From a virus: a stretch of 64,000 nt of DNA. The position numbers and the translations under genes are program-made. Every line of letters begins with the position of its first letter. Position 1 is the first letter of the stretch. Below, one piece after another: positions 2,491 through 34,274 of this stretch. The notes beneath the pieces were generated by a model. It worked only from the letters and a program-made list of their open reading frames with translations, had not been told where the DNA came from and did not search any database. The DNA lies in IMG/VR virus record IMGVR_UViG_3300034280_001042, positions 1 through 64,000 of that record. The stretch is one strand, 5' to 3'.

Positions 2491-3990
2491 ATGTCTAGTA
2501 GCAATAATATTCCAAATATCGTTTTTGGTAGCGGTATAAACTTTCGCATAAACGCTGCGGGAAATAAGCCTCTACCATCACAAGAGAATTTTGCTCAACA
2601 AATCTTACCTGAAATCGGATTATTTTTTACTCCAACTCCGACTCGCACTCCAACAGTTACTCCAACATTAACTCCTACTATTACCCAAACTCCGACTGGG
2701 GCAACAAAAACCCCCACCCCCACCGCTACAAAAACTCCAACTCAAACAGCATCACAAACAAGAACCCCCACACTAACTCCTAGCGTTACTAGAACAAAAA
2801 CCCCAACCCCAACAGTTACTCCAACTCGAACGATTACTCCAACGATTACTTCAACTGTAACTATTAGTCCAACAGTTACTACTAGTCCAACCCCAACTAG
2901 AGACTGTATTTTAGGAGACAACTTCAGTAGCTACTCATTACCTGCAATCACAGATTGGAAAGACATAACTTATGGCAATAATACTTATATTATTATAGAA
3001 AGTATTAATGCGACATTAGTTAGTTTAGATGCTCGCAATTGGACTCTGGGAGAAGGACTTCCATATTCTGGTCCTAATGCTTGGCAGAGTATCACTTATG
3101 GTGCAGACAATAGGTTTGTGGCTGTTGGATCGTCTCCAAAATCAGCAATCAGTAACGATGGATCAACTTGGGTGGCTGGAAATAATATCATGCCAATAGT
3201 TGCTGTATCTGGTTCAGGTACGCCTCCACCCGTAGAGAATTACACATGGAATCAGATTATATATTCTGAAGAAATACAAAAATATCTAGCAGTTTCTAGT
3301 TCGAGTAATCGATCTACAGCTTCTAGAATAGCTATTAGTAGCGACGGGATCACTTGGACAAGTAACCCCCTACCTACAGCGCCATCTTTCAGCGGTGCTC
3401 CAACAAATAAAAATTGGCTAACCATAGCTTATGGGGCCAATTATTTTGTTGCGGGTAGCGATTCGTCTTTTGGAGATGGTACCATAGAGACAGATTATGA
3501 TCCATCGATAGCCACGAGTACAGATGGTGTTGTATGGACACTAAGATCAATAGGGTCTTCAACAAACTGGAACACTAATAACATAGGAAATATTAAAAAG
3601 ATAGTATATGGTAATGGTAATTTTGTAGCTATTGCACAGGGGAATATAACTGTGGGAAGCTCAGTGAGAGGTTGTTGTCGCGTATTTATAAGCTCTAATG
3701 CTATCAACTGGAACTTGGTTGCAACAATACAAGGATCAAATAGCAACTTGGTATTCGGATCACCTAATTCTTTGGGTATGAGTAAGTTTTTGCTTTTAGT
3801 TAGAAATATTACTACTGGAGATAATGATATTTACTATAGTATGACTGGTTCTGGATGGACGATTTTAAGCTCTCTAGAATCTACAGCTTTTGATATTTCT
3901 AGTATTCAAAGCTTAAATGGTCAATTTATAGCAATTAATCAATCAACAGTTTATTTAGCAGACAATTGTCCTGGAGGATTTTCTCAATAA
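2491..3990 (+). CDS. Thr/Pro-rich stalk plus beta-propeller protein (W..I.YG..FVA / S.DG..W repeats), putative tail or adhesion protein
   Basis: About 90 aa TPTxTPT tract, then repeated WxxIxYG and SxDGxxW blades; AGGAG RBS. Confidence 0.7.
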   Translation: MSSSNNIPNIVFGSGINFRINAAGNKPLPSQENFAQQILPEIGLFFTPTPTRTPTVTPTLTPTITQTPTGATKTPTPTATKTPTQTASQTRTPTLTPSVTRTKTPTPTVTPTRTITPTITSTVTISPTVTTSPTPTRDCILGDNFSSYSLPAITDWKDITYGNNTYIIIESINATLVSLDARNWTLGEGLPYSGPNAWQSITYGADNRFVAVGSSPKSAISNDGSTWVAGNNIMPIVAVSGSGTPPPVENYTWNQIIYSEEIQKYLAVSSSSNRSTASRIAISSDGITWTSNPLPTAPSFSGAPTNKNWLTIAYGANYFVAGSDSSFGDGTIETDYDPSIATSTDGVVWTLRSIGSSTNWNTNNIGNIKKIVYGNGNFVAIAQGNITVGSSVRGCCRVFISSNAINWNLVATIQGSNSNLVFGSPNSLGMSKFLLLVRNITTGDNDIYYSMTGSGWTILSSLESTAFDISSIQSLNGQFIAINQSTVYLADNCPGGFSQ

Positions 3991-3997
3991 TTATAAT

Positions 3998-4004
3998 GGT
4001 GTAT
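3998..4004 (+). promoter_or_regulatory. GGTGTAT intergenic motif
   Basis: Starts 29 nt before ATG 4027, followed by TAATATAAGGA. Confidence 0.45.
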
Positions 4005-4026
4005 TAATATAAGGAATAAAAAAACT

Positions 4027-4278: not shown

Positions 4279-4596
4279 ATGAGCGAAACCATTATTCATT
4301 TCTGGGAAAATATTGCAACAACCAGTATTGGCATTATTGTCACAATGGTAGGGTTTTGGGTGGCTATTGGTAGAAATATGGCTACTAAAGCAGAAGTTTT
4401 AGTTATGATAGAAACTCAAAGTCCATATAACCATGATAAACAGTTTATTATGGAAAGACTTAACAGCAATAAAGAAAGTCAAGCAGCATTTGCATTAGCT
4501 TTGCAAAGAAATACTGAAGTAATGACAGAGTTAAAAATTCAAATAGCAACACTTGGTAAAACCTTAGAAGCCCTAGAAGACAGAATAGAAAGGTAA
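4279..4596 (+). CDS. Single-TM plus coiled-coil membrane protein (holin or antiholin-like architecture)
   Basis: N-terminal hydrophobic IGIIVTMVGFWVAI; C-terminal heptads. Confidence 0.55.
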   Translation: MSETIIHFWENIATTSIGIIVTMVGFWVAIGRNMATKAEVLVMIETQSPYNHDKQFIMERLNSNKESQAAFALALQRNTEVMTELKIQIATLGKTLEALEDRIER

Positions 4597-4599
4597 TTT

Positions 4600-4800
4600 A
4601 TGGCAAATGATATAAATAAAGCAATTAGTGCTAATCAGATAAAAAACGGAACAACCGTTGTCACAACAACAGTTGCAGGAGAGTATTCAACAATAGATAC
4701 ATATGCTAAAAATAGTCCAACAATTAATGATATTCAAGCCAAATATGATAATAGATTCTATAATGGTATTTTTGTTAATGTAATTGCTAGTGGTATTTAA
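4600..4800 (+). CDS. Hypothetical protein
   Basis: ORF tightly packed in the operon. Confidence 0.5.
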   Translation: MANDINKAISANQIKNGTTVVTTTVAGEYSTIDTYAKNSPTINDIQAKYDNRFYNGIFVNVIASGI

Positions 4801-4833
4801 TAAAATAATCACATAATTGGAGAAAATAAATCA

Positions 4834-5160
4834 ATGGTCAAACCCGGCTATAGAACCAGTGAATTCTGGTTTACTTTTGTCAGTTTTATATTTAGTGGAT
4901 TATACCTAATTGGCTTATTGGATAGTAATAGTCAAAAAGAAAATTTAATCGAAGAAACTAGCAGAGGATTAGAAGCTACTATCCTTATTATAGGACAATT
5001 AATGGTATTGTTCAAATATGTTAAAGGAAGAACTGATCTTAAAAAGACTTGGTGGAGCACAGCAACACCAGAAGAAAGAAAAGAAGCTAATAAAAAGAAT
5101 AGTCAACCGCTAAGAAAAAAGAGAAAGAAAAATGCAAACCCAAAACCTATCAGTAAATAA
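4834..5160 (+). CDS. Two-TM holin-like protein
   Basis: KPGYRTSEFW N-terminal motif, two hydrophobic segments, strongly basic C-terminal tail; GGAG RBS. Confidence 0.55.
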   Translation: MVKPGYRTSEFWFTFVSFIFSGLYLIGLLDSNSQKENLIEETSRGLEATILIIGQLMVLFKYVKGRTDLKKTWWSTATPEERKEANKKNSQPLRKKRKKNANPKPISK

Positions 5161-5557
5161 TCTTGGGAATCTAGTAATTAAAGCTAAAGAAATACTAAAT
5201 AGTGCTAAAGCAGTAGCCATGCCACAAGCATGGAATATTTTACAACTAGCTACAGCAGAAGTTATTCAGAGCATAGAAGATAATAGTCCCTCTCTGAGAG
5301 GGGCCGATAAAAAAACATTGGCTATGACTATGATTTCTAACTTTTATGATCAAGTATTTACAATAATAAATTTTCCATTTGTTCCACAGATTTTACAACC
5401 TATTATACAGAAGTATGTGAAACAAATTCTCATGCTATTGGTTAGTGCGACTATTGATGCTTTAGTTACCACTTTTAGAAATAGTGGAGTTTTTGTTGAT
5501 CCAAGCACTAAGGTTGATCCTGTTGTTGATAATACTCCAAAAGTTTCAGATAAATAA
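5132..5557 (+). CDS. Hypothetical alpha-helical protein (GADKK motif)
   Basis: ORF overlapping the upstream gene. Confidence 0.55.
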   Translation: MQTQNLSVNNLGNLVIKAKEILNSAKAVAMPQAWNILQLATAEVIQSIEDNSPSLRGADKKTLAMTMISNFYDQVFTIINFPFVPQILQPIIQKYVKQILMLLVSATIDALVTTFRNSGVFVDPSTKVDPVVDNTPKVSDK

Positions 5558-5571
5558 ACAAGGAAAACAAA

Positions 5572-5973
5572 ATGAATTTTACAGAGAGCTTCCAAGAATT
5601 TAGTAGTCGTTTGAGCACAACGGATTTGGCTCTTTATGCTGGTGCTGGCATTATTATCTGGGTATTGTTTAAGGATAGACTAAGCCCAGTTCAACAATTA
5701 ATTACTTCATTAGTTGAAAAAGTCAAGGGTATAACAAAAGGAAATACTGTTACATTACCAACTGTTGATGTTCCCAAAGTTGATCCAGTAGTATTACCTA
5801 AAGTAGTCGGAGAGAATAAGGACGATGTGTTTTTTAAGCTTGTAGTATCATGGAAACAAACTCGTGATCTAGCAGAAAAGAGTGGTTGTGCCGAGGCTAT
5901 TAAGGTTGCTGATCAAATGTTTCCGTTTCTAAGTCCTAATGTGTGCTCTAAAAAAGAGGATAAAGTAGTATGA
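5572..5973 (+). CDS. Single-TM membrane protein
   Basis: LALYAGAGIIIWVLF; AAGGA RBS. Confidence 0.6.
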   Translation: MNFTESFQEFSSRLSTTDLALYAGAGIIIWVLFKDRLSPVQQLITSLVEKVKGITKGNTVTLPTVDVPKVDPVVLPKVVGENKDDVFFKLVVSWKQTRDLAEKSGCAEAIKVADQMFPFLSPNVCSKKEDKVV

Positions 5974-6464
5974 AAAATAATAACCTATTACTGGTAGTAG
6001 CTGGTTTACTTATTCTGGTTGGCTTAACCAAGTTTGATCTATCAAGACTCAACATTCTACCAAACAAACCTAATGCTGTTGATGTTCTAGAATTACCAGA
6101 ACCAACAGACTCAGCTGTTAAAAAAGAAGCAGATGACGTTGTCTCAGTACTAAAAGAATCTGGAGCAAAAGGCGATGCTAAAAGATTACGAGATTTATAT
6201 CTTGATCTAGCAAAACTTGTTGAGCTTGATGGAGAAAACGAGGTGGTTAGAAATACTGAAGAAATTCGTCAAGCCAATAGTTTGGCTGGTGTTATGCTTA
6301 GACTAGATATTAAGGGTAAGTATCCTGATCTAGCTAAAGAAGCAAAAGAAGTGGTAGTAGCAGCTATTGGAGACGATCAAATTCTTTTATCTAAAGAGCT
6401 AAGGGCTAAGGCCGTAGAAGGTCTTAATGCTTTAGCTTGGGCTTGTAATATGGGGTCAAAATAA
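5970..6464 (+). CDS. Signal-anchored (secreted or periplasmic) helical protein
   Basis: N-terminal LLLVVAGLLILVGL; ATGA overlap with the upstream gene. Confidence 0.6.
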   Translation: MKNNNLLLVVAGLLILVGLTKFDLSRLNILPNKPNAVDVLELPEPTDSAVKKEADDVVSVLKESGAKGDAKRLRDLYLDLAKLVELDGENEVVRNTEEIRQANSLAGVMLRLDIKGKYPDLAKEAKEVVVAAIGDDQILLSKELRAKAVEGLNALAWACNMGSK

Positions 6465-7387
6465 TGGCTAGACTCTCTCCGAAAGAATTATACGATAATT
6501 ATCGTAAGGGATTTAGTGGATGCGTCTGGGAAGAGCATGTGTTCAATCATTTGATGGAAACTTCCAAGTATCCATTATTTGGTGATGCTAGTAAAAAAAT
6601 TAGTGGCAGCGGTAAGGGTAAACTATCAACACCATACAAGAGTGTGTTAAAGTTTGATAAACATCCTTATAATGAAAGACAAACCACTGGGGATTGTGTT
6701 AGTCATGGAACACGAAATGCTTGTGATGTTTCACGAGCAGTAGAAATAGATGTGCATAATGAAAGAGAGGATTGGATAGCAAGGGGTGCAACAGAGGCTA
6801 TCTATGGATATAGAGGATTTAGTGGACAGGGCATGAGTTGTGCCAGAGCAGCTGAGTTTGTCAGCAAGATTGGTGGTCTTGTAGTAAGAAAAAATTATGG
6901 TTTTGTAGATTTCAGTAAATACAATGGTAATTTAGGTGCTGGTTGGGGAGGTCGAGGACTCCCAGACAAAGTACTAGATCTAGCAAATGACCATCAAATC
7001 AAGACCGCCTCATTAATACGAACAGTAGAAGAAGCTAGAGATGCTTTGGCTAACGGTTATGGTTTAGCAGTATGTTCTAACTATGGTTTTAGTAACACTA
7101 GAGATAAAAAGGGATTTGCTAGACAGTCTGGTTCTTGGGCGCATTGTATGGCTTGGATAGCTTGTGACGATACTAATGGAGAACCAGCATTTCTAGTACA
7201 AAATAGCTGGGGAAAATGGAATGATGGTGGTCATCCAGAATGGGGTCCAATTCCTGATGGTTCATTTTTAATTCATTCTGATGTTGCTCAGGGTATGTTG
7301 AGTCAAAACGGATCATATGCTTTTAGTGGTTTTGATGGATTCCCTCTTCAAAAACTACCAAGCTACGGATTTGATGACTATTTGTAG
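6464..7387 (+). CDS. Papain-like cysteine peptidase (C1 family)
   Basis: Q..GDCVSH (oxyanion Gln plus catalytic Cys), WAHCM (His) and VQNSWG (Asn) occur in canonical order. Confidence 0.85.
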   Translation: MARLSPKELYDNYRKGFSGCVWEEHVFNHLMETSKYPLFGDASKKISGSGKGKLSTPYKSVLKFDKHPYNERQTTGDCVSHGTRNACDVSRAVEIDVHNEREDWIARGATEAIYGYRGFSGQGMSCARAAEFVSKIGGLVVRKNYGFVDFSKYNGNLGAGWGGRGLPDKVLDLANDHQIKTASLIRTVEEARDALANGYGLAVCSNYGFSNTRDKKGFARQSGSWAHCMAWIACDDTNGEPAFLVQNSWGKWNDGGHPEWGPIPDGSFLIHSDVAQGMLSQNGSYAFSGFDGFPLQKLPSYGFDDYL

Positions 7388-7451
7388 AGTTAATTTTCAC
7401 TTATCGATATAATCTCCACTATTTCTGGCCAAAAATGCATTAGTGGTATTT

Positions 7452-7458
7452 GGTGTAT
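7452..7458 (+). promoter_or_regulatory. GGTGTAT intergenic motif
   Basis: Third intergenic copy, followed by CATAATAT. Confidence 0.4.
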
Positions 7459-7496
7459 CATAATATGTTACTACCCTATTATACGAGATTATTTCT

Positions 7497-7691
7497 ATGA
7501 GACTAATAGACAGAATAGCTTTAAATAGAGCTATACATATGCTGTTAGGGTTTATCTTGTCTGTATTAAAGATGTTTGAAAAAAACAATCCAGAAAATAA
7601 ACCAGACGATTCGATTAAACCAAAACCACAAAAAAGAAAAAGACTAAAAGACTTGGTAGACAACATACTACCATGGAGAGAACAAAAATGA
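7497..7691 (+). CDS. Small membrane-associated protein
   Basis: Hydrophobic MLLGFILSVL followed by a Pro/Lys-rich tail. Confidence 0.55.
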   Translation: MRLIDRIALNRAIHMLLGFILSVLKMFEKNNPENKPDDSIKPKPQKRKRLKDLVDNILPWREQK

Positions 7692-7984
7692 ATAAATTAT
7701 TTATTAGTCTATTTTGCATTAGTTTATTGTTTTCTGAAGGAAGGTATTACGGCTCAACAACAGCTTCGGTAACTCTTGCTGGTGGAATTATTAAAGCTAA
7801 GCATTCACAAGAAATTACTACAAAATACAAGAGAAAAGATTGTCCAGTATGTAAGGGTAAAGGATGGTATATGAGTGGAGACAATATCAAAAAAATTGAT
7901 TGCAATTATTGCGAACCAGACAACTCAGCACCACTCTCTTCTAAAATAGACCCTAATTGTAAAACTCATATCAAACGCAACTAG
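7688..7984 (+). CDS. Signal-peptide protein with a DnaJ-type zinc-finger motif
   Basis: Likely start ATG 7688 (ATGA overlap); CPVCKGKG...CNYC. Confidence 0.6.
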   Translation: MNKLFISLFCISLLFSEGRYYGSTTASVTLAGGIIKAKHSQEITTKYKRKDCPVCKGKGWYMSGDNIKKIDCNYCEPDNSAPLSSKIDPNCKTHIKRN

Positions 7985-7996: not shown

Positions 7997-10762
7997 ATGC
8001 CAACATGTAATAGTGCTAATTATAATCTATCAGCAAACTGGAATGGTGTTGTAGGAAATCTTACTTCTGTTGGTACTAATGGAAGTCCCAGCTATTATGA
8101 TACCTATGACCAGTCAGGATCTTTATACGAATGGAATGATTCTATTATTGGGTCCAATAGAGGATTAAGGGGTGGTAGCTGGACAGACTCTACTGTTAGT
8201 AATTTGTCAAAATCATATAGATTTTCTTTTTTGCCTAACGCTAGATTAACTACTGTTGGATTTAGAATAGCTACAATCAATGATGATCGTCAATACAGCA
8301 CCTTTGTAACAGTAGCTAATATTGCTAATGCAGCTGATAGCACAACATATGGTTCTGTTGGATATACATATAAAATACAAAAATATTTAGTTACTAATAC
8401 TGAGTATACGGAATTTCTAAATGCTATAGGTATGACAGATACCTATGGACTGTATTCAGCAACATATATGGGCACAGAAAGCAGAGGAGGTATTGCTAGA
8501 GGAGGATCCAATGGAAGTTATGTATATGCTGTTAAAACTAACATGGGAAATAAACCAGTATACTATATATCTTGGTTTAATGCTGCTAGATTTGTAAACT
8601 GGTTGCATAATGGAAAACCCAGTGGTGCTCAAAATTCATCCTCAACAGAAGACGGAGCATACACCCTCAATGGAGCTATATCTGGATATAGTTTTACAAA
8701 AAATATCTCAGCTAAATATTGGATTCCAACAGAGAACGAATGGTATAAAGCAGCTTATTATGATCCATCTTTGAATACAGGATCGGGTGGATATTACTCT
8801 TACTCAACACGTAGCAACAGCTCCCCAGATTCCGTAACAGCATCTTCAATCGGAGATGCTATATTGCCAATTGGTTGCATAACACCTACTCCAACAGCAT
8901 CTTTCACACCATCTCCTACAAAAACTCCAACTAATACACCGACCAATACAGCAACAGTAACTGCTTCACAAACTAAAACGCCATCGGCAACTCCTACATT
9001 CACACCAACTCCAACAATAACGGCTTCTGTAACGCCAACTGTTACTAAAACTCAAACAACTACCATTACTCCAACAAGAACCGTTACTCCAACACATACT
9101 GCAACCAGTTCTTTAACTCCTTCAATCACTCCAACAAATACAAAGACTCCAACAGCTACTAAAACTAGTACTCCAACAACCACAGTATCTCCGACACCAT
9201 CCAAGTCTTTATGTGATTCTTTAAAACTAGGACAACTAATTCTAAATGAAGCACTATACAATACAAATGACATTACTATATTATATAACGGATTTGTATT
9301 AAGGGGCATAATTGATGATCCCATATTTAGCTTAAGAGAACCTCCAAATGTAACGCCTACAAGAACTCCCACGGTTACTCCTACAAATACAGCAACTCCT
9401 ACGGTTACTCCTACAAAGACTGCAACCCCAACTCTTACCACCAGTTTAACTAATACTCCAACAGCAACAACAACACCTACTAAGACTCCAACACAAACTC
9501 AAACCAGTACAACAACTCCAACAAACACAATAACCCCAACAGTAACGACGACACAAACTCAAACCACAACACAAACAATAACTCCTACAGTTAGTGTTAC
9601 ATCTACTAGTACCTTAACTCCAACTCCTACTAATACTATTACCTCTACTAATACTGTAACTCCAACAAATACTAATACTCAAACAAATACTGGTTCTCTA
9701 ACACCAACTCCCACACTAACAGCTACTACAACTCCTACTATAACTCCAACAAACACTGAAACTCCTACTATAACTCCAACTAGCACTGTTACTCCAACTA
9801 ATAGTACAACTCCAACTAATACTATTACGCCTACAAATACAGCTAGTCAAACCCCAACAAACACAATAACTCCGACATATACAAGAACACCAACTCCAAC
9901 TCCAACTAATCCAATACCAGCTTCATTCGTAGCAGTTGCTTTTAATTCAGACACTGTTGCAACTTCTAATAATGGAATTTCATGGAATAATTATACTTTA
10001 CCAGGATCTAAATATTGGACAGATATAGAATATGGTAACGGAGTATTCGTATCTTGTCCTTATACAGATGCTGTGGGAGCCAAATCTACCAACATTTCTA
10101 GTTGGACCAACCAATCTTTAGGCTCGGCCTCTAATTGGATCAATATAATTTATGGTAATGGTATTTTTGTTGTTATGTCTCAAACTGGTAATACTCAAAT
10201 TTACTCTAGTACCACAGATACATGGTCTTCATCTTCTTTACCTTCTCTGGGTGTTGGTTCAATATGGAAGTGTGGAGCATATGGTAATGGTGTCTACGTT
10301 GCATTGTCCTCTACAAATAATCTAGCCACGTCAAACAATGGAACCAGTTGGAGTCAATCTACATTACCTTCTACTGGGGACTGGCAAGCTATTACATATG
10401 GCAATAATAAGTTTGTAGCAATTGCAAATAACTCTGATAAAGCCATATATTCCAGTAATGGTACAGATTGGTCTGCTAGTACCCTGCCATCTGTCGCCTA
10501 TTGGTCTAGTATAGCTTATGGTAATGGTAAATATGTGGCAGTTGCAAATGATTTTGGTTATGTCGCAGTTTCTTCTGATGGAGTTAATTGGACTCAATAT
10601 GCTTCTCTGTGGGGCCTATGGCAAGGTATCTCTTATGGAAATAACATATTTGTAACTGTTGGTTTTGGTTCAACTACGCTAACGTCAACAAATGGAATAA
10701 CCTGGACTCAAAGAACAATGGTCGGTCGAGATTGGTCAGCAATTACATTTAGAAACGATTAA
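7997..10762 (+). CDS. Circularly permuted FGE-sulfatase-type (C-type lectin fold) domain, long Thr/Pro stalk and beta-propeller; putative receptor-binding or fibre protein
   Basis: DQSGSLYEW, RGLRGGSW and GFRIA come before KYLVTN, KPVYYISWFNAARFVNWL and PTENEWYKAAY; TPTxT tracts at aa ~295-640; YGNG/SxNGxxW repeats. Confidence 0.8.
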   Translation: MPTCNSANYNLSANWNGVVGNLTSVGTNGSPSYYDTYDQSGSLYEWNDSIIGSNRGLRGGSWTDSTVSNLSKSYRFSFLPNARLTTVGFRIATINDDRQYSTFVTVANIANAADSTTYGSVGYTYKIQKYLVTNTEYTEFLNAIGMTDTYGLYSATYMGTESRGGIARGGSNGSYVYAVKTNMGNKPVYYISWFNAARFVNWLHNGKPSGAQNSSSTEDGAYTLNGAISGYSFTKNISAKYWIPTENEWYKAAYYDPSLNTGSGGYYSYSTRSNSSPDSVTASSIGDAILPIGCITPTPTASFTPSPTKTPTNTPTNTATVTASQTKTPSATPTFTPTPTITASVTPTVTKTQTTTITPTRTVTPTHTATSSLTPSITPTNTKTPTATKTSTPTTTVSPTPSKSLCDSLKLGQLILNEALYNTNDITILYNGFVLRGIIDDPIFSLREPPNVTPTRTPTVTPTNTATPTVTPTKTATPTLTTSLTNTPTATTTPTKTPTQTQTSTTTPTNTITPTVTTTQTQTTTQTITPTVSVTSTSTLTPTPTNTITSTNTVTPTNTNTQTNTGSLTPTPTLTATTTPTITPTNTETPTITPTSTVTPTNSTTPTNTITPTNTASQTPTNTITPTYTRTPTPTPTNPIPASFVAVAFNSDTVATSNNGISWNNYTLPGSKYWTDIEYGNGVFVSCPYTDAVGAKSTNISSWTNQSLGSASNWINIIYGNGIFVVMSQTGNTQIYSSTTDTWSSSSLPSLGVGSIWKCGAYGNGVYVALSSTNNLATSNNGTSWSQSTLPSTGDWQAITYGNNKFVAIANNSDKAIYSSNGTDWSASTLPSVAYWSSIAYGNGKYVAVANDFGYVAVSSDGVNWTQYASLWGLWQGISYGNNIFVTVGFGSTTLTSTNGITWTQRTMVGRDWSAITFRND
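8880..9915 (+). repeat. Coding Thr/Pro low-complexity repeats (two tracts; 30-nt periodic units)
   Basis: AACTCCTACTATAACTCCAAC at 9730-9750 and 9760-9780; ACGGTTACTCCTACAAA at 9371 and 9401. Confidence 0.85.
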
Positions 10763-22545: not shown

Positions 22546-22560
22546 TCGGATTGGTGAATT

Positions 22561-25447: not shown

Positions 25448-25510
25448 TCTGAAAGAATTTTCAGAAGAATGTCCACAGAAAGTCTTTGAAATTATAAAAA
25501 AACTTTTATC

Positions 25511-26161
25511 ATGAAAATATTATTTACACAATGGTTTAAAGCCACGCCCGAAGTTTTAACATACAATCTGTATTGCTTGTATAGAAACCTTTCTAATGAA
25601 AGAATAGACAAACTAGTTCTATTTGTTGACAATTGTGAGTTCAGTAATATTTTCAATGAAAAGCTGATTGTTGTTCCAATACAAATAAGACTTTCCTATA
25701 AAATGTGGATGGACTATGCCGATAAAGAATATCCAGAAGACATAAAAATACTATCTAATTCTGATGTTTATTTTGATGAATCATTATCTTTTTTGGATCA
25801 AATAAATGAGTGGGAAAATAGATTATACGTATTAACAAGAAAAGATTTGACAAAAGATGGGAATATAATTCCCTCCTCTTTAGTGTATAATCCAAATAAC
25901 ACAGAGCAAACCAGCCCTCAGCATTGTCAAGACGCTTGGATATACAAAAACAAACTAGGGGGAGATTTCAATTATAATCTTGGAGTAATGCATTGCGAAA
26001 ATAGTTTCAGAATAAGCGCTCAAGAATTTGGAATAGAAGTATTTAGTCTTTTTGATAATGTTGAATTGATACATGTTGACTGGAGAGGTTCAAAAATATA
26101 CAGTCAAGAACAATATATAATTTATAAAGAACGCCCAAACTTGCCATATATAGAAAAATGA
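25511..26161 (+). CDS. Putative glycosyltransferase (NSD..F / QDAWI type)
   Basis: NSDVYFD, LTR, QDAWIY and G..HCEN. Confidence 0.5.
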   Translation: MKILFTQWFKATPEVLTYNLYCLYRNLSNERIDKLVLFVDNCEFSNIFNEKLIVVPIQIRLSYKMWMDYADKEYPEDIKILSNSDVYFDESLSFLDQINEWENRLYVLTRKDLTKDGNIIPSSLVYNPNNTEQTSPQHCQDAWIYKNKLGGDFNYNLGVMHCENSFRISAQEFGIEVFSLFDNVELIHVDWRGSKIYSQEQYIIYKERPNLPYIEK

Positions 26162-26841
26162 AGAGACAATTAATATCAGTAATAGGAGTGGAAATTGTAG
26201 ACATAGATCTATTTTATCATTTCATAAACTATTATAACCCATATGTTGACGAATTTTCTTTAGTGTTTAATTATAAAAATAAAGATATATTAGATTCTTT
26301 TTATGAAATGGTACCACAAAATAAAAGGAATATACAATTTTGGGATAAAAAATTTACTGAGGATGCCAAAACAAAATATATAAATGAATTAATTAGTTTT
26401 GATGATAGAGTCAGCTTAATAGCAGATCACGATGAATTCATTGAGTTTAATGAAGAGTTTTTTGATTGTCCAAAAAATAAATGTAATGTTGGCGAATTGG
26501 TACAAAGATTTAATGTAGTGAACGATAAAGTGGTTCTATCTAAAGTAGAAAGAGATAAGAGCCTATTTGATCAATTCAAATATTCAAGCACAACAGATAT
26601 ACCTGATGGTCACATAAATACTTTCCGAGCATCAGCAAAAGTTTGTTATGTTCATGATATGCGCGTTTCTGATGGACATCATTGTCTTGAAGGATGGGTG
26701 GGACCAACAGTAGAACAGATTCACACTAAAATAAATGTTTATCATTTCAAATACGATAGCTATTTCCCAAAAGTTGTAAAAAATATTCTTGATGTATATC
26801 CGACTTTCGATGAAATTATAACCCTAGATAAGTTGATTTGA
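26158..26841 (+). CDS. GT2-like protein
   Basis: HF.NYY, ADHDEF, GHH and YHFKY. Confidence 0.55.
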   Translation: MKRQLISVIGVEIVDIDLFYHFINYYNPYVDEFSLVFNYKNKDILDSFYEMVPQNKRNIQFWDKKFTEDAKTKYINELISFDDRVSLIADHDEFIEFNEEFFDCPKNKCNVGELVQRFNVVNDKVVLSKVERDKSLFDQFKYSSTTDIPDGHINTFRASAKVCYVHDMRVSDGHHCLEGWVGPTVEQIHTKINVYHFKYDSYFPKVVKNILDVYPTFDEIITLDKLI

Positions 26842-26844
26842 CAA

Positions 26845-27474
26845 ATGACCAAAACAGTATACACATATTATGAGCCTCTGGGGATGGGTAGAAATTACGC
26901 AGAAGAAGATCTAATTAAAATTTGTGCAGAATCTTGGGAGAAAAATGGTTGGAAACTTGTAGTTTTAAATTATGAATTAGCCAAATCGCATGATTTTTAT
27001 TCAAGCTATTCTGAAGTTATTAAACAATTGCCTTCTGTTAATCCAGCCTTCTATGATTATCACTGCTATATTAGATGGCTAGCTATGTCTAAAATTGGCG
27101 GCGGTATAATGATAGATTACGATGTTGCTAATCTGAGTTTAACAGACGATTCTATTTTTCAACAAAAAATTATTACAGGATTTCAAGGACACGTTCCATG
27201 TGTTGTTTCAGGAACAGCGGAACAATATCTCGGGGTGTGCAAAATTTTCTGCGAATTAAGAGACAATGAAAAATGCATAGACAATAATTATAAAAAACCG
27301 CACACATCAGACATGATGATGATAGCCAGAGGATTTAAAGAAGATCAATTTAATAAAATTAATTATGTTGTTGATTACCCAAAAACGGCTCCACTTGTTC
27401 ATTGTCCTCAAGATGCGTGCTTAAAAAACAAAAGGACCAAACTTGAAGCTATGAGAGAGATTCTTAAACTATGA
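26845..27474 (+). CDS. DxD-type glycosyltransferase-like protein
   Basis: SW...GW and RWLAM..GG.MIDYDV. Confidence 0.5.
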   Translation: MTKTVYTYYEPLGMGRNYAEEDLIKICAESWEKNGWKLVVLNYELAKSHDFYSSYSEVIKQLPSVNPAFYDYHCYIRWLAMSKIGGGIMIDYDVANLSLTDDSIFQQKIITGFQGHVPCVVSGTAEQYLGVCKIFCELRDNEKCIDNNYKKPHTSDMMMIARGFKEDQFNKINYVVDYPKTAPLVHCPQDACLKNKRTKLEAMREILKL

Positions 27475-27653
27475 AAATATTATTCACACAATGGTTCAAA
27501 ACCACGCCCGAAGTTCTATCCTACAATCTTTACTGTTTGTATCAAAACCTTTCTAATGAAAGATTTGAACATATAGATTTGATACATGTTGATTGGAGAC
27601 AAGAGAAGAAGTATACTCAAAGCGCCTATCATTCTTGGCAAGATATAACCTAA
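27471..27653 (+). pseudogene. Internally deleted, in-frame paralog of 25511..26161
   Basis: First 93 nt match 25511-25603 at 82/93; the sequence then jumps to match aa ~181 onward (LIHVDWR). Confidence 0.8.
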
Positions 27654-27680
27654 ACTATAGTATAAAGAAAGGAGAAACTT

Positions 27681-28418
27681 ATGATATGTGTTTTTACCCA
27701 AACCCATGGCGACAAAAGATCAAAGCTTTATGATTGGAAGGCTAGAGATGAGAACCTTAACTTTTTCATCAGCCAATTTGATCACTCCATAATGTCATTT
27801 CATAATTCTCCTGATGAGTATAGAAAAGAAATATTAAAAAAATACAATGTTTTCAAAGAGATAAAAATTTTTAATGGAATTTTGTATGCCGAATGTATTA
27901 AGAGAATCGTAGACTATGTGAAGGAAAATAACTTCACCAAGTTTATTTTTTTTCACGATGATGTATTTAGTGTCCAGAAAGATCGTGAATTTTATGAGGA
28001 ATTGGTTGATTTCATCAAGAATTCTTCGCACGATATGATGTGCTTGGAATATGAAGGAAATCCCGAGCAACACAAGGTTCTGGAGAGTAGAAACAACTTC
28101 AATGTATTTAACACCACCAACCACGATCTGGTGAAGTCCGATCCTAAGATATGGCATTTTGATGACGCCGCGTTCGTTGCAAATGTCAAATTCTTAGACA
28201 CGATCTATAGCAAGGAATTCTTCGCAGCAGACGACCGAAAGCCGTGGGTACAAGACGGAGGACACGCAGAGTGCATACTGAGAAGCCAGATGCAACAAAA
28301 GGTCATACCTAGATATGTGCTTGACAAAAAGAGTTTAGTCAGGTGCAACCTAGTTGGTCCCTCAAGCAATAAGACGACCGAAAAGTGGTTAATAAAGAGA
28401 TTTAAGGAGGAGGATTGA
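27681..28418 (+). CDS. Putative GT-A glycosyltransferase
   Basis: FFHDDV; AGGAG RBS; visibly more GC3-rich codons than its neighbours. Confidence 0.45.
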   Translation: MICVFTQTHGDKRSKLYDWKARDENLNFFISQFDHSIMSFHNSPDEYRKEILKKYNVFKEIKIFNGILYAECIKRIVDYVKENNFTKFIFFHDDVFSVQKDREFYEELVDFIKNSSHDMMCLEYEGNPEQHKVLESRNNFNVFNTTNHDLVKSDPKIWHFDDAAFVANVKFLDTIYSKEFFAADDRKPWVQDGGHAECILRSQMQQKVIPRYVLDKKSLVRCNLVGPSSNKTTEKWLIKRFKEED

Positions 28419-28419
28419 A

Positions 28420-29001
28420 ATGATAAAAAACGAAACCAATTGGTTCAATTATGCTAATTTTTACGAGTTTATAGCAGAGCAAAATTTTAAAACTTTTGTT
28501 GAAGTTGGCGTATTTTTTGGCTTGTCAATTAGTTTTTTAGCCCAAAAAGTCAAAAGCAAAGATGGCGTAAAAATATACGGAGTTGATTTATTTGAAACTT
28601 GGGCGGGAAAAGAACAAATTGAATATTTGTATGACATAAAAGGCTTGTCTGACAAAGATAGATTGGAAAAACTTGGTGAATACAAGTATAATTTCGTTGT
28701 CAATAGATTAAATGAAGTTGGATGTAATCATTTTGTTGAACTTATAAAAAGCGATAGTTCTGCTGCCGCCTCGTTGTTTGAAAATGAATCATTAGATTTT
28801 GTTTTTATAGACGGAAACCACTGGTACGATTATGTAAAAAAAGATATAGAAGCATGGTTGCCCAAAATTAAAAAAGGTGGTATTATTTCTGGACATGACT
28901 ATCAAGCGGCGGGAGTTTCAACTGCGGTAGGAGAGACCTTTGGCGATTCGGCTAAAGTTTTTAAAGAATCTCGATCCTGCTGGTATGTGGATATCAAATA
29001 A
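28420..29001 (+). CDS. Class I SAM methyltransferase (Methyltransf_24-like), paralog of 24074
   Basis: VEVGVFFG.S, FIDGNH.Y and GGIISGHDY. Confidence 0.85.
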   Translation: MIKNETNWFNYANFYEFIAEQNFKTFVEVGVFFGLSISFLAQKVKSKDGVKIYGVDLFETWAGKEQIEYLYDIKGLSDKDRLEKLGEYKYNFVVNRLNEVGCNHFVELIKSDSSAAASLFENESLDFVFIDGNHWYDYVKKDIEAWLPKIKKGGIISGHDYQAAGVSTAVGETFGDSAKVFKESRSCWYVDIK

Positions 29002-29762
29002 TGAATATGCAAGTTATCATGTCCGACAATAGAGATGTTGAGTTTGATTTGGAAAAATGCGAATACAACACATTATCTGCAATAATAAATTACGAGTATT
29101 CTTGTCTGCACAAATATGACTTCAAGTACTTTAGGCCTTTGATAAAAGGCAAAGTTGAGTTGGCTAATTGTCTATCTCCAACTAAAAAACCCAGACATGC
29201 GGCATGGTCTAAAATTCTTTCTTGCATTAAGGCCATAGAAGAAGGTTACAAATACGATTTTGTTGTATATCTGGACTCGGATTGTGTTTTCAGTCATCAC
29301 GAAACTTCTTTAACTGATTACATTGACCGAAGCAAGAATGTATTGAATAAAAATTTGAACATGAAGTTTGATGTGTTTTTCATGAACAACCAACCATGGC
29401 ATCGCTTCTTGCCATGCTCCGGTTTTTTTCTGTTTAGGCCCAATTCCAAAGCTCTTGATTTTTTCAAAACTTGGTATCAACAAAATCAAGACGACAAGTA
29501 TAATCTTAATCATCCATGGGAACAGCACTGCCTACAGAGTTACTTAATCAAAAGTTCTAAATTTGAAGTAATAAACGACTGGATGTTTAATGATCGGAAA
29601 CAAAATCAATACTTGAGACACATAGGTCGTGGAAATCCGTTAAGAAAAACCTTTTTTAATCAAATTATTAATACATACAATCAGGAAAAAATAGAGTCTA
29701 GTCTTGAAGCGCTTAAAGAGCTTGTTGTAGCTTACGATACTACTACTATTAAGTACGATTAA
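29001..29762 (+). CDS. GT34-like (GMA12/MNN10) glycosyltransferase
   Basis: Y...H.Y, WSKI, YLDSD, SGFF and WEQ. Confidence 0.65.
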   Translation: MNMQVIMSDNRDVEFDLEKCEYNTLSAIINYEYSCLHKYDFKYFRPLIKGKVELANCLSPTKKPRHAAWSKILSCIKAIEEGYKYDFVVYLDSDCVFSHHETSLTDYIDRSKNVLNKNLNMKFDVFFMNNQPWHRFLPCSGFFLFRPNSKALDFFKTWYQQNQDDKYNLNHPWEQHCLQSYLIKSSKFEVINDWMFNDRKQNQYLRHIGRGNPLRKTFFNQIINTYNQEKIESSLEALKELVVAYDTTTIKYD

Positions 29763-29775
29763 TTAGGAACAAAAA

Positions 29776-31107
29776 ATGATTTCTAAAGACGACTACGTCT
29801 GCCCAAGCTGTCATAATGATGATAAGCAAAGAATAATCTTCTTAGGTTCAGATTTTTCTTATCAATGCAAACATTGTTTGGCTATTCATGTGTTTGTAGA
29901 AAATCTATATTCAAAATTTCAAGATAATTTTAAACATCATGGTTGCGGCTCTTATAGGTGGAAAATTAATCGATATATAGGAACATATTCTCAACAAAAT
30001 CAGTGGATTGATAATATTAATACTACGGCTAAGGATACTCATGAAATTAATCAATACGCTAACGCTAGGAAAGGTTTTGAAAAAATTATTTTAGGCATAG
30101 GTTCTGATTATAATAAAATAAATATTACTAAAGAAAAAATATCTAATAAAAATATTGATGCTAATACTTCTATTTTTATTGCTAATGCCATCAACACTAA
30201 ACACTTTCAGGATTCTTTCAGGGCGATTGTGAGAATGAAAGAAAGATTACTAGAAGAAAAAGAATCATATAAAATATTAATTATGCAACCTAATATGCAT
30301 ATTTGTAAGAACCCAGTATCAAAACTAGAGGGCATTGATGAAATATGGGTTGTTAATGATTGGAATGATAAAATGGATTGGTATTATATGTTGGGGGAAA
30401 ACGATAATAATTTGAATGATATAAAAAACCTATCCTATAGTCTAACTCAAGCACTAGACAGTTATAGAGATAATGAAACAGAGGCTGTCTCAAAAAGACC
30501 AGGACCGATGAAACAAGGAACCAAACCAATTAAAGACTTATTATACGTCCCAAAAAGAGAGCTAAGAGATAACAAGAATAGATTAATTGATGGCAAGTAT
30601 TTAGCAATTTTAATTAGAAATGATTATCCGAGCAGAGCTGGACTAGAAACAACATCTCAAATACAAGAAATATGTGAAGCTATTAAGAATCAAGGTTTTA
30701 AACCAGTCATCATAGCTTGTGATAATAGAGAAGAAGATATTTGTAAATTATTAACATTAGATGATCCTATAATAATAGCAAAAAACTTAGAAGAACAAGT
30801 AATTTTTTATAATGAACATTGCTACGGTCTTATAGGAACGAACTGTTCAGGATGTAATTTACCAGTATTATATAGTATACCAATGTTTATTTTAGCTAAA
30901 ACAAGATTTTTCCCAGACGACTTTTATTGTATGGGGCGCATATTATCCCCTCATGACTGCAATAAACTATTTAATGGCGACCTTACCAAACCAGATAATG
31001 TAAAAGAGATAAGAACAATCACGGACCAGCATACCAGTATTAAGAACCACTTAGTAGAATTTGAGGAGTGGTTGTATTCTTTAGGTAAACAAATTATTAA
31101 CACATAA
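29776..31107 (+). CDS. Zinc ribbon plus putative GT-B-like protein
   Basis: CPSC...CKHC N-terminus; ILIRN and IGTNCSG..LP in the C-terminal half. Confidence 0.4.
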   Translation: MISKDDYVCPSCHNDDKQRIIFLGSDFSYQCKHCLAIHVFVENLYSKFQDNFKHHGCGSYRWKINRYIGTYSQQNQWIDNINTTAKDTHEINQYANARKGFEKIILGIGSDYNKINITKEKISNKNIDANTSIFIANAINTKHFQDSFRAIVRMKERLLEEKESYKILIMQPNMHICKNPVSKLEGIDEIWVVNDWNDKMDWYYMLGENDNNLNDIKNLSYSLTQALDSYRDNETEAVSKRPGPMKQGTKPIKDLLYVPKRELRDNKNRLIDGKYLAILIRNDYPSRAGLETTSQIQEICEAIKNQGFKPVIIACDNREEDICKLLTLDDPIIIAKNLEEQVIFYNEHCYGLIGTNCSGCNLPVLYSIPMFILAKTRFFPDDFYCMGRILSPHDCNKLFNGDLTKPDNVKEIRTITDQHTSIKNHLVEFEEWLYSLGKQIINT

Positions 31108-31871
31108 TGAACAAAAAATTAGCATTCATATATACTTATGGTAGGATAGGATCTACAAGTTTATTTCGTAGCATATCTAATAAAACAGATGCTCATCATT
31201 TTCATAATTTCAAACCATATTTTGACAACCATCTGAATACAACAAATAATTATACTAATATAGAACAACTATTATCTTCTCAGGAATCTATCTATATAGT
31301 CACGGGGGTACGCGACCCTATAGCCAGAACAATATCTGCTCTTTTTACATGGATCACCAAAGAAGGCAGACTCAATAATTTAACTCAGTATTCTGGAGGA
31401 GGTAAGTACTTTTTAGGCCATAATAAAGAAGAAATCAAAAAGCTTGATATTAATTTGATAATACAGAAACTTTTAAACTGTTTGTCTAACGATAATATGT
31501 TTGATCAAAAAGACTGTTGGTTCAATAATAATATTCGTAATTTTTTTGATATAGATATATATAATTATTCATTCAATACCAACCAAGGATATATTCTGAT
31601 TAATCAAGATAAATATAAAACTCTAGTATATAGGCAGGAAAACTTAAGAGATAATCATGAAATGGTTAATTCTTGGTTGAACACAAGCGATATTTTGCTG
31701 GTGTCAGAAAATGAATCCAAAACCAAGTGGTACTATGACTTATACAAACAGCTATTAGAAAATATAAAATTTTCTCAAGAAATCTTGGATAAAGTATATG
31801 ATAATAAAAAAATTCGTCATTTTTATAGCGATACAGAAATATCTAACTTTTATAAGTATTATCTTTCATGA
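31107..31871 (+). CDS. Sulfotransferase-fold protein (capsular polysaccharide synthesis NKWYS-type)
   Basis: GRIGSTS (5'-PSB-like), VRDPIARTIS (3'-PB-like), N.S..KWY..LY and HFYS..EI. Confidence 0.7.
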   Translation: MNKKLAFIYTYGRIGSTSLFRSISNKTDAHHFHNFKPYFDNHLNTTNNYTNIEQLLSSQESIYIVTGVRDPIARTISALFTWITKEGRLNNLTQYSGGGKYFLGHNKEEIKKLDINLIIQKLLNCLSNDNMFDQKDCWFNNNIRNFFDIDIYNYSFNTNQGYILINQDKYKTLVYRQENLRDNHEMVNSWLNTSDILLVSENESKTKWYYDLYKQLLENIKFSQEILDKVYDNKKIRHFYSDTEISNFYKYYLS

Positions 31872-32566
31872 AAGAACCTAAAGAACCCACTAACGAATGG
31901 CGGCTGTCTTCTGATTATGATGAAGCAATTCATCTTAACGGTGGATATACTCTAGCTCTTGGATATTGCTATCTTAATAGACTAGAATATCTTTTTAAAC
32001 AGAATAATAGAAGGCTATTCCAGTTCAGAACCAAGTGGGGCTGGTGTGGTGTGAATTTTTTATTCTCTGCTATGCGGCCCGATAATATACTGATTATTAA
32101 CTCTTGGGCTAATTCTGCTATGGTTGCTAAGTCTCATACTACGCTATTTTATGTTTGGTCAGCTATTTTAAGAAACATATTAGAGGTCAGAGGACCAGAT
32201 AATAAGCCGATACCAACTATGATCATTGATATGCCAGCAGCTATCCATAGACATCTAAACTTAGAGGACAGCACAATAGATAAAACCAAATTCCTACAAA
32301 ATAGAGAAAAATATAAAGCTAAAATTATTGATCCAATTATATCTGATAATCCTAGTCATATTAGATATATTGATCTTCTCGACTATTTTTCGGCAGAGTG
32401 GGAGATGATAATAGAAAATCAAAAAAATGAGCATAATAGATCTCCTTGGCATATATCTGATCAGGTATTAGACACCATCTTTAGTCACTTTTTACAATTT
32501 ACCAATAATGCCGAACACTATTCTCACATGAATCTGATCAAAGACTTAAAACAACTAAAATTATGA
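31868..32566 (+). CDS. Hypothetical protein (possibly SGNH-like)
   Basis: ORF coupled to both neighbours; LGYC and a C-terminal PWH give only a weak hint. Confidence 0.45.
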   Translation: MKEPKEPTNEWRLSSDYDEAIHLNGGYTLALGYCYLNRLEYLFKQNNRRLFQFRTKWGWCGVNFLFSAMRPDNILIINSWANSAMVAKSHTTLFYVWSAILRNILEVRGPDNKPIPTMIIDMPAAIHRHLNLEDSTIDKTKFLQNREKYKAKIIDPIISDNPSHIRYIDLLDYFSAEWEMIIENQKNEHNRSPWHISDQVLDTIFSHFLQFTNNAEHYSHMNLIKDLKQLKL

Positions 32567-33417
32567 AAACCAAAATAGCAGATCAAAACTATAGCAAGCC
32601 TATACCCACAGCTGTAGATGGTAATAATCTATTAATAGATAAATTAAAATCTGATAAAATATTTTTCGCTGGTAGATCTGGTGGAACAGAGTGTGAGATC
32701 GTTCAAAAAATTTATAGATATAAAGAAAAAGTTCCACACCACGTTAGAGAGAGAGCATTTAAAGTAGCAGGAATATATCCTTTAACAGATGATAATTACC
32801 AAAAATTTGTAGATACATATATAAGAGGAATTAGAACTCTTGACGTTGTTGGAGTTTGGGGTGTTATTGGTTACGATTGGTTAGTAGATACCTTTTGTCC
32901 AGAAGCAGATTATATTAGATTAACTAGTCTAGAGCCTTATTATTTCCCAGATAATCCATGGAGTGCTTTTTTACAGGACAAGAAAATTCTAGTTATTCAT
33001 CCATTTGTTAATAGCATACAAAATAATTTTCTTAAAAGAGAACATCTTTTTAGAGAGACAAAAATTTTACCAAATTTCTATCTTACAACCTTAAAAGCCG
33101 ACCAAAATTATGGTAAACAAGCTGATTGGTTTGAGAGCTTAGATAAAATGAAGAATGAAATACTAAATATAGATTTTGATATAGCGATTATTGGGTGTGG
33201 CGCTTTTGGGTTGCCTTTAGGATCTTTTATTAAGGAAGTAGTTAAAAAAACAGCGATTCATTTAGGAGGTCCAGTTCAGATATTATTTGGTGTTATGGGC
33301 AGGAGATGGGAAACCAACAGCGGTATTATGAGGTTCCACAACGAATACTGGACACGACCTTTGCCCGAAGAAACTCCGGAATCTTATATGTCTGTAGAAA
33401 AAGGATGTTACTGGTAA
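32563..33417 (+). CDS. GT-D-fold-like polysaccharide biosynthesis protein
   Basis: R.GGTE, LEPYY..PW, LVIHPF, IIGCGAFGLPL and HLGG..QILFG. Confidence 0.6.
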   Translation: MKTKIADQNYSKPIPTAVDGNNLLIDKLKSDKIFFAGRSGGTECEIVQKIYRYKEKVPHHVRERAFKVAGIYPLTDDNYQKFVDTYIRGIRTLDVVGVWGVIGYDWLVDTFCPEADYIRLTSLEPYYFPDNPWSAFLQDKKILVIHPFVNSIQNNFLKREHLFRETKILPNFYLTTLKADQNYGKQADWFESLDKMKNEILNIDFDIAIIGCGAFGLPLGSFIKEVVKKTAIHLGGPVQILFGVMGRRWETNSGIMRFHNEYWTRPLPEETPESYMSVEKGCYW

Positions 33418-34274
33418 TGTCTAGTATAGACTATTTTATAGTTTGTCATAGTCAAGAATCTATTATTGAATTTTTGGATACAAAAAAATTTAATACGCTA
33501 CCTAATTATCGTTTTCTATTTGTTGGTAACAGAGAAACTAATCAACTTAAACCACTATCTAACGTAATTGTCTGTAATAAATTACCAAAAAATATAGAAG
33601 AATGTGCCAATCTATGTAGCTTTACAGCATGGTACGCTATTTCTAAAAATAAACTATACAATTCTAATCATTTATGTTTATTAGAATATGATATCGAGTA
33701 TTCTCAAGAACTACATAATAAAAATACATTTGCTATTTCCAATGAAACCAAACCATCTATTTATGGATATTCTATAGCTCCTGTTAACCATCGTGTGTTC
33801 TATAGAAGCACACCAATACTAGAACTAGCAATTCATAAAACATATAATATTGATCTATTAAATTTTATAAATAATTATGGATCTCAAGAAAAATACTGGC
33901 TCACCACCACAAACATGATGATGCATCAAAATACTCTGCGCTCATTTGTAGACTGGTATATGCCGATGATAGAACAATTTAAATATGAACCTATGAGCGC
34001 GTATGTTCATGAAAGAGCTATACATATATTTTTTTTACTTAAGAATATTCAGCTTAACTATATAAAAAATGCTATTAAACATCACCAAAAATGTTCACAC
34101 AGCATAGAAGATGTTTATGGATATTTTTTGAAAAACAAACAAGAAAAATACCTGATCTCCTCGGATATGCCAGAATACGATCTATTGTACACAAACATAC
34201 TATGCGAGCTTGACAAAAAGTACAACTCCAGTATGATAGACCATGTAAACTCAAAGGAAACAGGATCAAAATGA
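33417..34274 (+). CDS. Putative glycosyltransferase-like protein
   Basis: Likely start ATG 33417 (TAATG overlap); FTAWY, LLEYD and HER. Confidence 0.45.
   Translation: MSSIDYFIVCHSQESIIEFLDTKKFNTLPNYRFLFVGNRETNQLKPLSNVIVCNKLPKNIEECANLCSFTAWYAISKNKLYNSNHLCLLEYDIEYSQELHNKNTFAISNETKPSIYGYSIAPVNHRVFYRSTPILELAIHKTYNIDLLNFINNYGSQEKYWLTTTNMMMHQNTLRSFVDWYMPMIEQFKYEPMSAYVHERAIHIFFLLKNIQLNYIKNAIKHHQKCSHSIEDVYGYFLKNKQEKYLISSDMPEYDLLYTNILCELDKKYNSSMIDHVNSKETGSK
34210..34237 (+). promoter_or_regulatory. Sigma70-type promoter (TTGACA-16 nt-TATGAT) for the nucleotide-metabolism block
   Basis: TTGACA 34210-34215 and TATGAT 34232-34237, 33 nt upstream of the dCMP deaminase ATG. Confidence 0.6.

Follow-up and report, generated by a model that had tools for sequence, protein, structure and literature searches.

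Variable glycan genes and mucin-like Thr/Pro proteins in an uncultured tailed phage, with possible O-glycosylation of virion fibres

Large glycosyltransferase islands of aquatic phages have so far been assumed to alter the host surface. In pelagimyophages and cyanomyophages, a host recognition cluster of fibre genes and many glycosyltransferases forms a large non-syntenic island between conserved modules while synteny is kept elsewhere, and the authors of the pelagimyophage study favoured modification of the host O-chain (PMC7029224); for another marine phage, 13 transferases were claimed as perhaps the highest number in such a virus (PMC12801897). A precedent for virion O-glycosylation is provided by mycobacteriophages (Freeman et al., 2023, as cited in PMC12619734), whose transferases glycosylate virion proteins of the phage itself in the cytoplasm; these glycans, which depend on a small operon, were located by mass spectrometry at the C-terminal ends of capsid and tail-tube subunits. 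The 64,000-nucleotide window analysed here, bases 1-64,000 of the linear 91,971-bp IMG/VR virus record IMGVR_UViG_3300034280_001042 (G000; CheckV completeness 66%), carries an island of glycan genes near proteins with long threonine/proline (Thr/Pro) tracts, and cytoplasmic mucin-type O-glycosylation of virion fibres is the leading, though tentative, reading of this arrangement. The relatives used for comparison were G006, which is the closest, G001 (95.7 kb, collinear with G000 throughout), G002, G003, G004 and G005.

Thr/Pro proteins and a GT60-type gene

Long Thr/Pro and Thr/Gly tracts in three large proteins, singled out in a preliminary description of the window, were borne out when their coordinates were taken from translation and a six-frame scan (Table 1). 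The Thr/Pro tracts are degenerate at the DNA level (66-91% matches), and their composition is therefore maintained, not the product of recent expansion. In the ortholog P0096 (67% identity overall) both tracts are kept at matching positions, and among 70 homologs of the N-terminal FGE domain, 37 have Thr/Pro tracts, the longest being 1070 residues in a 3719-aa protein.

The 499-aa and 921-aa proteins have a common C-terminal repeat domain, which was modelled as a β-propeller (predicted local distance difference test, pLDDT, 96.6). The best matches of this propeller among predicted viral structures include proteins annotated as intramolecular-chaperone, tail-collar, short-tail-fibre, baseplate and virion-structural, and tail-fibre and tailspike proteins are matched as well; in phage Xoo-sp13, the propeller repeat ends a 'host specificity protein' encoded beside tail sheath genes. 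The repeat is also very common in long metagenomic proteins. No match was obtained when viral contigs were searched with the C-terminus of the 499-aa protein, and a sequence search of solved structures with the propeller was uninformative. The FGE domain is present too in a 1172-aa structural-module protein of G000, and the structural module of G001 contains Thr/Pro tracts. Judged by sequence and predicted structure, the Thr/Pro proteins carry fibre-type modules and look like fibres; the folds, the FGE domain and the tracts in structural modules thus make virion association well motivated. The earlier proposal that these proteins are virion stalks accordingly stands for the fibre-type modules (FGE/lectin-like and β-propeller), and their presence in the virion is something that we infer. 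The entire FGE/Thr-Pro/propeller gene (within 7915-11025) is an indel relative to G006, which has 145 bp instead and carries a Thr/Pro FGE gene some 32-34 kb away from the syntenic site; fibre genes of this kind therefore move as cassettes.

A 43-aa mini open reading frame (ORF) on the minus strand of the tail module (G000 ~76473-76604, beyond the window; L002 ~16473-16604) consists of a Cys-Cys motif and then a Thr/Pro tract, and a start of this kind recurs in relatives at the N-termini of large Thr/Pro proteins (L015 2629 and 10898, L110 7706, G002 46463).

A gene matching PF11397, here called GT60-type, was found in G002 and G006 (205-213 bits; 52583-53899 in G006). In the G002-type segment it encodes a 438-aa soluble protein with a DSH metal-site-like motif (213 bits), and the same segment holds more variable sugar-enzyme blocks and Thr/Pro proteins, including one of 891 aa with a Thr/Pro tract of ~450 residues. 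The gene occurs at 52 related IMG/VR loci, with 55-97% identity in 47 of them, and many of these loci lie on contigs that also bear the RgpF slot described below or FGE/Thr-Pro genes. A Thr/Pro-rich ORF lies within 10 kb of the GT60-type gene in 22 of 35 lineages, at differing relative positions and directly adjacent in distant lineages. A sequence search of solved structures with the encoded protein was uninformative. The characterised members of GT60 are exclusively polypeptide Thr/hydroxyproline (Hyp) α-N-acetylglucosamine (GlcNAc)-transferases: GlcNAcα1-O-Thr starts mucin-type O-glycans in Trypanosoma cruzi and Dictyostelium, and GlcNAc-O-Hyp is formed on cytoplasmic Skp1 (PMC8724618, PMC9472816, PMC6939170). 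A 2OG-Fe(II) oxygenase, possibly a prolyl hydroxylase, was found in one of five records (G002 11861-12691, L065; PF13640, 30 bits), ~2 kb from a Thr/Pro-rich ORF. With the oxygenase in just this one relative, Hyp-linked glycosylation is unsupported, and Thr linkage is therefore the simpler guess.

G006 bridges G000 to the G002-type segment, which is a part of the genome absent from the G000 contig; treatment of G002 as a separate lineage was rejected, since G006 places it upstream of the G000 contig start. Both G000 (1-290) and G001 (L007 2-253) start within low-complexity repeats, TTTGG in the former and poly-Pro/Thr-Pro in the latter. Assemblies probably break at such repeats, and this would account for the lack of the GT60-bearing segment in G000. 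Two IMG/VR records named GVMAG and labelled as giant-virus metagenome-assembled genomes (L197, L198) have a GT60-type gene with 55-56% identity to the phage gene, reflecting either shared genes or mis-binned phage contigs.

The glycan island and its slot

The ~27 contiguous glycan genes over ~23 kb reported in the preliminary description proved to be contiguous, the count being 26 plus-strand ORFs over 22.6 kb (11658-34274), with most junctions overlapping or shorter than 20 nt. About 13 of these ORFs match glycosyltransferase, methyltransferase or sulfotransferase-like families (Table 1). RgpF, GT2/GT7, GT32 and GT64 assignments were upheld by Pfam, as were those of three methyltransferases, while GT8 was recovered only below the curated cut-off, and the sulfotransferase call has just the NKWYS family and a P-loop-like motif as its basis. 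Two supposed fucosyltransferase-like ORFs are unsupported, because ten island ORFs tested had no credible Pfam match even at E<=1.

The PF05045 match of the RgpF-like ORF scores 51.5 bits against a cut-off of 25 and covers model positions 268-499 only; the RgpF profile had no match among solved structures. For the ORF at 29776-31107, which has no Pfam match, the AlphaFold2 model (pLDDT 91) has a GT-B fold resembling WaaF (Z 14.6), WaaC (Z 13) and TibC (Z 11) at 7-12% identity, and the family is rare, with 22 clusters among 1.84 billion representatives. When solved structures were searched by sequence with a 796-aa island ORF, just a 40-residue DXD match to Legionella SetA was returned.

A Kyte-Doolittle scan revealed no island ORF with more than one hydrophobic segment and an N-terminal hydrophobic stretch only in 20708-21508, in line with the earlier expectation that the enzymes are soluble. 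Pfam recognised no initiating transferases, flippases, polymerases or ABC exporters over the island. The two approaches agree with the original observation that flippase, Wzy, ABC exporter and undecaprenyl initiator are missing, no polytopic transmembrane (TM) protein is encoded, and the region 11658-34274 does not have the make-up of a Wzx/Wzy- or ABC-dependent surface polysaccharide locus. No sugar-nucleotide synthesis genes were recognised in the island, and its GC content at third codon positions (GC3) is close to that of core genes.

Synteny shows the island to be an exchangeable cassette, housed in a fixed slot that runs from the GlsB-like gene to the dCMP deaminase gene. The slot measures 22.6 kb in G000, 10.6 kb in G006, 1.6 kb in G001 and about 6-7 kb in others (about 7 kb in G003 and G005), with almost no shared genes. 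It holds one transferase gene in G001, two Thr/Pro fibre genes and an RgpF-like gene in G004, and in G006 an 11-gene cassette that has no nucleotide similarity to the G000 island between flanks of 70-86% nucleotide identity; the RgpF-like proteins of G006 and G000 are 36% identical. RgpF-like genes were found at 71 IMG/VR loci, at least 27-36 of which have them in this slot. Among 57 non-redundant slot ORFs of relatives, the families are glycan-related only, namely GT2, GT1/4, NDP-sugar epimerases and dehydratases, RmlC, sulfotransferases, methyltransferases, GT7C, GT8, GT25, GT47 and GT61. By analogy, the pattern looks like long-standing cassette exchange as it occurs at bacterial O-antigen loci.

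Many large slot proteins share a motif of the type F-D-W-x-x-Y-L-x-x-x-P-D-L N-terminal to their transferase domains (L007 12282-13889, L022 16403, L076 11848, L085 4190, L097 11034). The single slot protein of G001 weakly resembles Mimivirus R655 (E 7e-5) and also has weak matches to GT25 and procollagen galactosyltransferase.

Table 1. Features of the window in order of position.
Feature	Position	Strand	Basis or remarks
Fibre- or adhesin-like ORF, 5'-truncated	1..2451	+	TTTGG/ITTGG repeats 1-290, pentapeptide and Ig-like repeats; contig starts inside repeat
499-aa protein	2491..3990	+	Short N-terminus, Thr/Pro tract 2605-2922, C-terminal propeller-type repeats
Small membrane protein cluster around 6464-7387	4279..7984	+	74-93% identical in relatives; left-hand conserved backbone
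921-aa protein	7997..10762	+	FGE-sulfatase (lectin-like) N-domain, Thr/Pro 8867-9226, small Cys-containing module, Thr/Pro 9326-9949, β-propeller 9920-10759
Slot left flank: TM protein and Transgly_assoc (GlsB-like) small membrane protein	11021..11642	+	Conserved in at least 27 related loci
RgpF-like glycosyltransferase, recurrent slot anchor gene	11658..12575	+	Pfam
Variable glycan cassette, 25 ORFs (those not listed below are unassigned)	12565..34274	+	
GT32-type DXD domain (Gly_transf_sug)	16161-18551	+	Pfam
GT8-like (weak)	18523-19359	+	Pfam below curated cut-off
GT64	19322-20527	+	Pfam
GT2-like (weak)	20708-21508	+	Pfam below curated cut-off
Methyltransferases (three)	23477-24031, 24074-24634, 28420-29001	+	Pfam
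GT2/GT7-like (GT7C)	24707-25447	+	Pfam; by sequence closest to β4-galactosyltransferases 1 and 7
Nucleotid_trans	29001-29762	+	Pfam
GT9-like GT-B	29776-31107	+	Predicted structure
NKWYS	31107-31871	+	Pfam
GT-D-like (weak)	32563-33417	+	Pfam below curated cut-off
dCMP deaminase, slot right flank	34271..34738	+	69-86% identical in relatives
Second sugar-enzyme block: GT4 and seven ORFs	52121..58654	+	Collinear in G001, 28-62% identity

Acceptors of the encoded enzymes

Under fibre O-glycosylation, a conserved soluble GT60-type polypeptide GlcNAc-transferase would place the first sugar on threonines of the Thr/Pro tracts; drawing on host nucleotide sugars, the cassette would then contribute soluble transferases, O-methyltransferases and a sulfotransferase-like enzyme that lengthen and decorate the glycans. 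The outcome would be a strain-specific glycan coat on fibres whose long Thr/Pro spacers lie between binding modules, the FGE/lectin-like domain and the β-propeller. Three things speak for this reading, namely tracts that resemble acceptors, modules of fibre type and a conserved enzyme whose family is known only with polypeptide acceptors; the soluble enzymes and several slot families of protein-glycan type also fit it. A bolder and somewhat doubtful version is that self-made mucins are a trait of a widespread, uncultured group of large tailed phages, GT60-type initiation taking place on Thr/Pro tracts of fibre proteins, the longest exceeding 1000 residues, and a recombining, strain-specific cassette of transferases, O-methyltransferases and sulfotransferases diversifying the glycans, with the result that the glycocalyx would be under diversifying selection.

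Several points weigh against fibre O-glycosylation. Glycosylation of the Thr/Pro proteins is proposed from sequence alone, as is the presumed action of the cassette on their tracts, and Thr/Pro linkers are able to work unglycosylated. PF11397 had no match on the G000 contig (66% complete) or on G001; the absence from G000 may reflect the incomplete contig, and a GT60-type gene is ascribed to the G000 phage by extrapolation from its relatives. PF11397 is here taken to correspond to CAZy GT60. Compared with the remainder of the loci, Thr/Pro ORFs were not significantly over-represented among the three genes closest to the GT60-type gene (p=0.25). RgpF is a rhamnan (polysaccharide) family, and both the RgpF-like and the GT9-like ORFs are nearest to enzymes of polysaccharide or lipopolysaccharide (LPS) synthesis, the GT9-like one being closer to LPS heptosyltransferases (Z 13-14.6) than to the protein heptosyltransferase TibC (Z 11). 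Solubility is, in addition, compatible with action on lipid-linked host glycans.

The linkage between cassette and Thr/Pro genes is likewise uneven. Immediately upstream of the RgpF-like gene, Thr/Pro-rich ORFs are over-represented (8/64 for the first two genes versus 7/681, Fisher p=8e-6), but this upstream enrichment is present in only 6 of 37 RgpF lineages, no Thr/Pro-rich gene lies within 10 kb in 25 of the 37, and all neighbourhood counts are confounded by shared ancestry, the loci not being phylogenetically independent. G006 has an 11-gene, 10.6-kb cassette, yet its syntenic site is without a Thr/Pro gene, and G001 and G004 combine a one-gene slot with long Thr/Pro tracts; the size of the island therefore does not follow the presence of neighbouring Thr/Pro genes. 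Proximity of a Thr/Pro gene to the cassette is not conserved, the co-occurrence of island size with Thr/Pro genes that the preliminary description had proposed to check did not emerge, and a correlation of island size with Thr/Pro length was rejected on the same grounds. On balance, the proposal that the enzymes build glycans on virion fibres has gained from the fibre modules, the solubility and the GT60-type gene in relatives, and has lost from the independence of island size and the affinities of the RgpF-like and GT9-like ORFs.

Doubtful as well, though to be taken seriously, is the alternative that the cassette alters glycans of the host envelope (LPS core, O-chain or capsule intermediates) by way of the host initiating transferase and exporters, for example against superinfection or re-adsorption, in which case the Thr/Pro tracts would be plain spacers or would carry at most a simple GT60-added sugar. 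The RgpF family match, the closeness of the GT9-like ORF to WaaF and WaaC, the presence of GT8 and GT25 as typical LPS families, an island turnover independent of Thr/Pro genes and a slot that adjoins small membrane proteins all suit such a role. It is also the published reading of the tail-fibre and glycosyltransferase hypervariable cluster in pelagimyophages and cyanomyophages (PMC7029224, PMC12801897), which tells against fibre glycosylation but is only an assumption for those other phages too. The lack of an initiating transferase, flippase, polymerase and exporter in the island speaks against host remodelling without excluding it, because peripheral cytoplasmic LPS and O-antigen transferases are soluble and likewise have no membrane spans. 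However, many families in the slot are of the kind that builds protein glycans in the Golgi or cytosol (GT7, GT61, GT47, GT64, Nucleotid_trans, Sulfotransfer_2), and action on the envelope leaves the GT60-type gene and the mucin-like tracts unexplained. A mixed outcome is possible, in which fibres are primed by the GT60-type enzyme and the cassette acts on the host.

It is highly improbable that the enzymes glycosylate phage DNA so as to evade restriction, as in phages with hypermodified bases. Phage DNA glycosylation is well known (PMC12801897, PMC12619734), the island adjoins nucleotide-metabolism genes (dCMP deaminase, ribonucleotide reductase), and the conserved GT4 at 52121-53785 lies beside replication genes and has, in residues 78-121, a weak match to the single-stranded-DNA-binding PC4 fold (E ~1e-3). 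The PC4 match is, however, absent in Pfam at E<=0.01, and homologs of thymidylate synthase/hydroxymethylase (PF00303, PF02511) were not found on the 92-kb incomplete contig. Together with the missing hydroxymethylase-type gene, the excessive size of the enzyme set and its O-methyl and sulfo enzymes make this target unlikely. Known DNA glycosylation systems have one to few transferases, versus the 26-gene cassette here. Unlikely, too, is another or mixed target (host or phage non-fibre proteins, or a soluble oligosaccharide), or mostly drifting accessory cargo with no single pathway: the ten tested ORFs with no credible Pfam match, the rarity of the family of 29776-31107 and a gene content almost unshared among relatives are what such cargo would show, whereas the operon-like tight packing, the intact reading frames, a GC3 near that of core genes and slot content that is glycan-related in every lineage compared are not.

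Returning to fibre O-glycosylation, the GT60-type enzyme beside huge Thr/Pro tracts in relatives offers a concrete, testable alternative, in which the phage glycosylates its own fibres. If this is true, virions with self-made glycans would be known not just from mycobacteriophages and giant viruses but also from a broad group of phages that has so far been seen in metagenomes only, a mucin-type initiation enzyme would enter phage biology, and glycan cassettes, together with receptor-binding proteins, would be a variable determinant of adsorption, protease resistance or recognition escape.

The phage lineage and its described counterparts

Because CheckV rates the 92-kb contig 66% complete, a full genome size of ~135-140 kb is implied. 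G000 encodes a split DnaE-type polymerase, a DnaB-like helicase, a primase, a UvsX-like recombinase and a ribonucleotide reductase, and from 60.9 kb to the contig end its minus strand carries genes for giant proteins that contain FN3 and FGE-sulfatase domains and weakly match tail proteins. Megablast with 20 kb of sequence gave no DNA-level match to GenBank phages, tblastn of the RgpF-like, GT64-like and NKWYS-like ORFs against GenBank phages gave none either, the best matches of the polymerase have ~33% identity, and the structural proteins tested in G000 and G001 had almost no PHROG or Pfam matches and no T4-type PHROGs. G000 thus belongs to an uncharacterised lineage of tailed phages, has no cultured relative, and shows its variable host-interaction region in the window. 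Promoter and terminator scans gave counts at chance level.

Among the small membrane proteins of the left flank, the most conserved gene (6464-7387; 74-93% identity) encodes a 307-aa soluble protein, which has no Pfam or PHROG match. The conserved GT4 (62% identity in G001) heads an eight-gene block that is otherwise fast-evolving (28-41% identity) and that forms part of the glycan gene set of the phage. An analogy of this block to GtfA/GtfB found no support, since a GtfA match did not appear, and a sequence search of solved structures with the ORF after GT4 was uninformative.

Like the pelagimyophage and cyanomyophage cluster, the locus is a hypervariable fibre/glycosyltransferase island between conserved flanks, with a slot that ranges over 1.6-22.6 kb. 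Unlike the T4-like backbone of those phages, in which the island lies inside the structural region, that of G000 has a split DnaE and no T4-type PHROGs, and its slot lies between the GlsB-like gene and the dCMP deaminase gene. Mucin-like Thr/Pro tracts and a GT60-type gene, as in the G000 group, have, as far as found, not been described for that cluster. Approximately nine to ten recognisable transferases are encoded in the G000 island, on two-thirds of a smaller genome than that of the 13-transferase marine phage. In comparison with mycobacteriophages, which the proposed cytoplasmic self-glycosylation resembles, the candidate acceptors are long Thr/Pro fibre spacers, and the gene set is far larger, hypervariable and known from genes alone.

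In the GT60 mucin-type initiation and protist Skp1 pathways, as here, a PF11397/GT60-type enzyme is found with Thr/Pro-rich acceptors and soluble follow-on enzymes of GT2/GT8 type; known GT60 enzymes are eukaryotic, whereas the phage one is known as a sequence. Nucleotid_trans (PF03407) is a family that we take to be GT77. Giant viruses use virus-encoded soluble pathways to place unusual methylated glycans on virion surface proteins, as in Mimivirus fibrils and chlorovirus capsid glycans, but they infect eukaryotic hosts and have their own nucleotide-sugar synthesis, in contrast to the G000 island with no recognised sugar-nucleotide genes. Hypervariable islands of fibre and transferase genes, and phage virion glycosylation, are thus already known (PMC7029224, PMC12619734), while the lineage, the RgpF-anchored fixed slot, the mucin-like scale of the Thr/Pro tracts and a conserved GT60-type gene in tailed phages are new.

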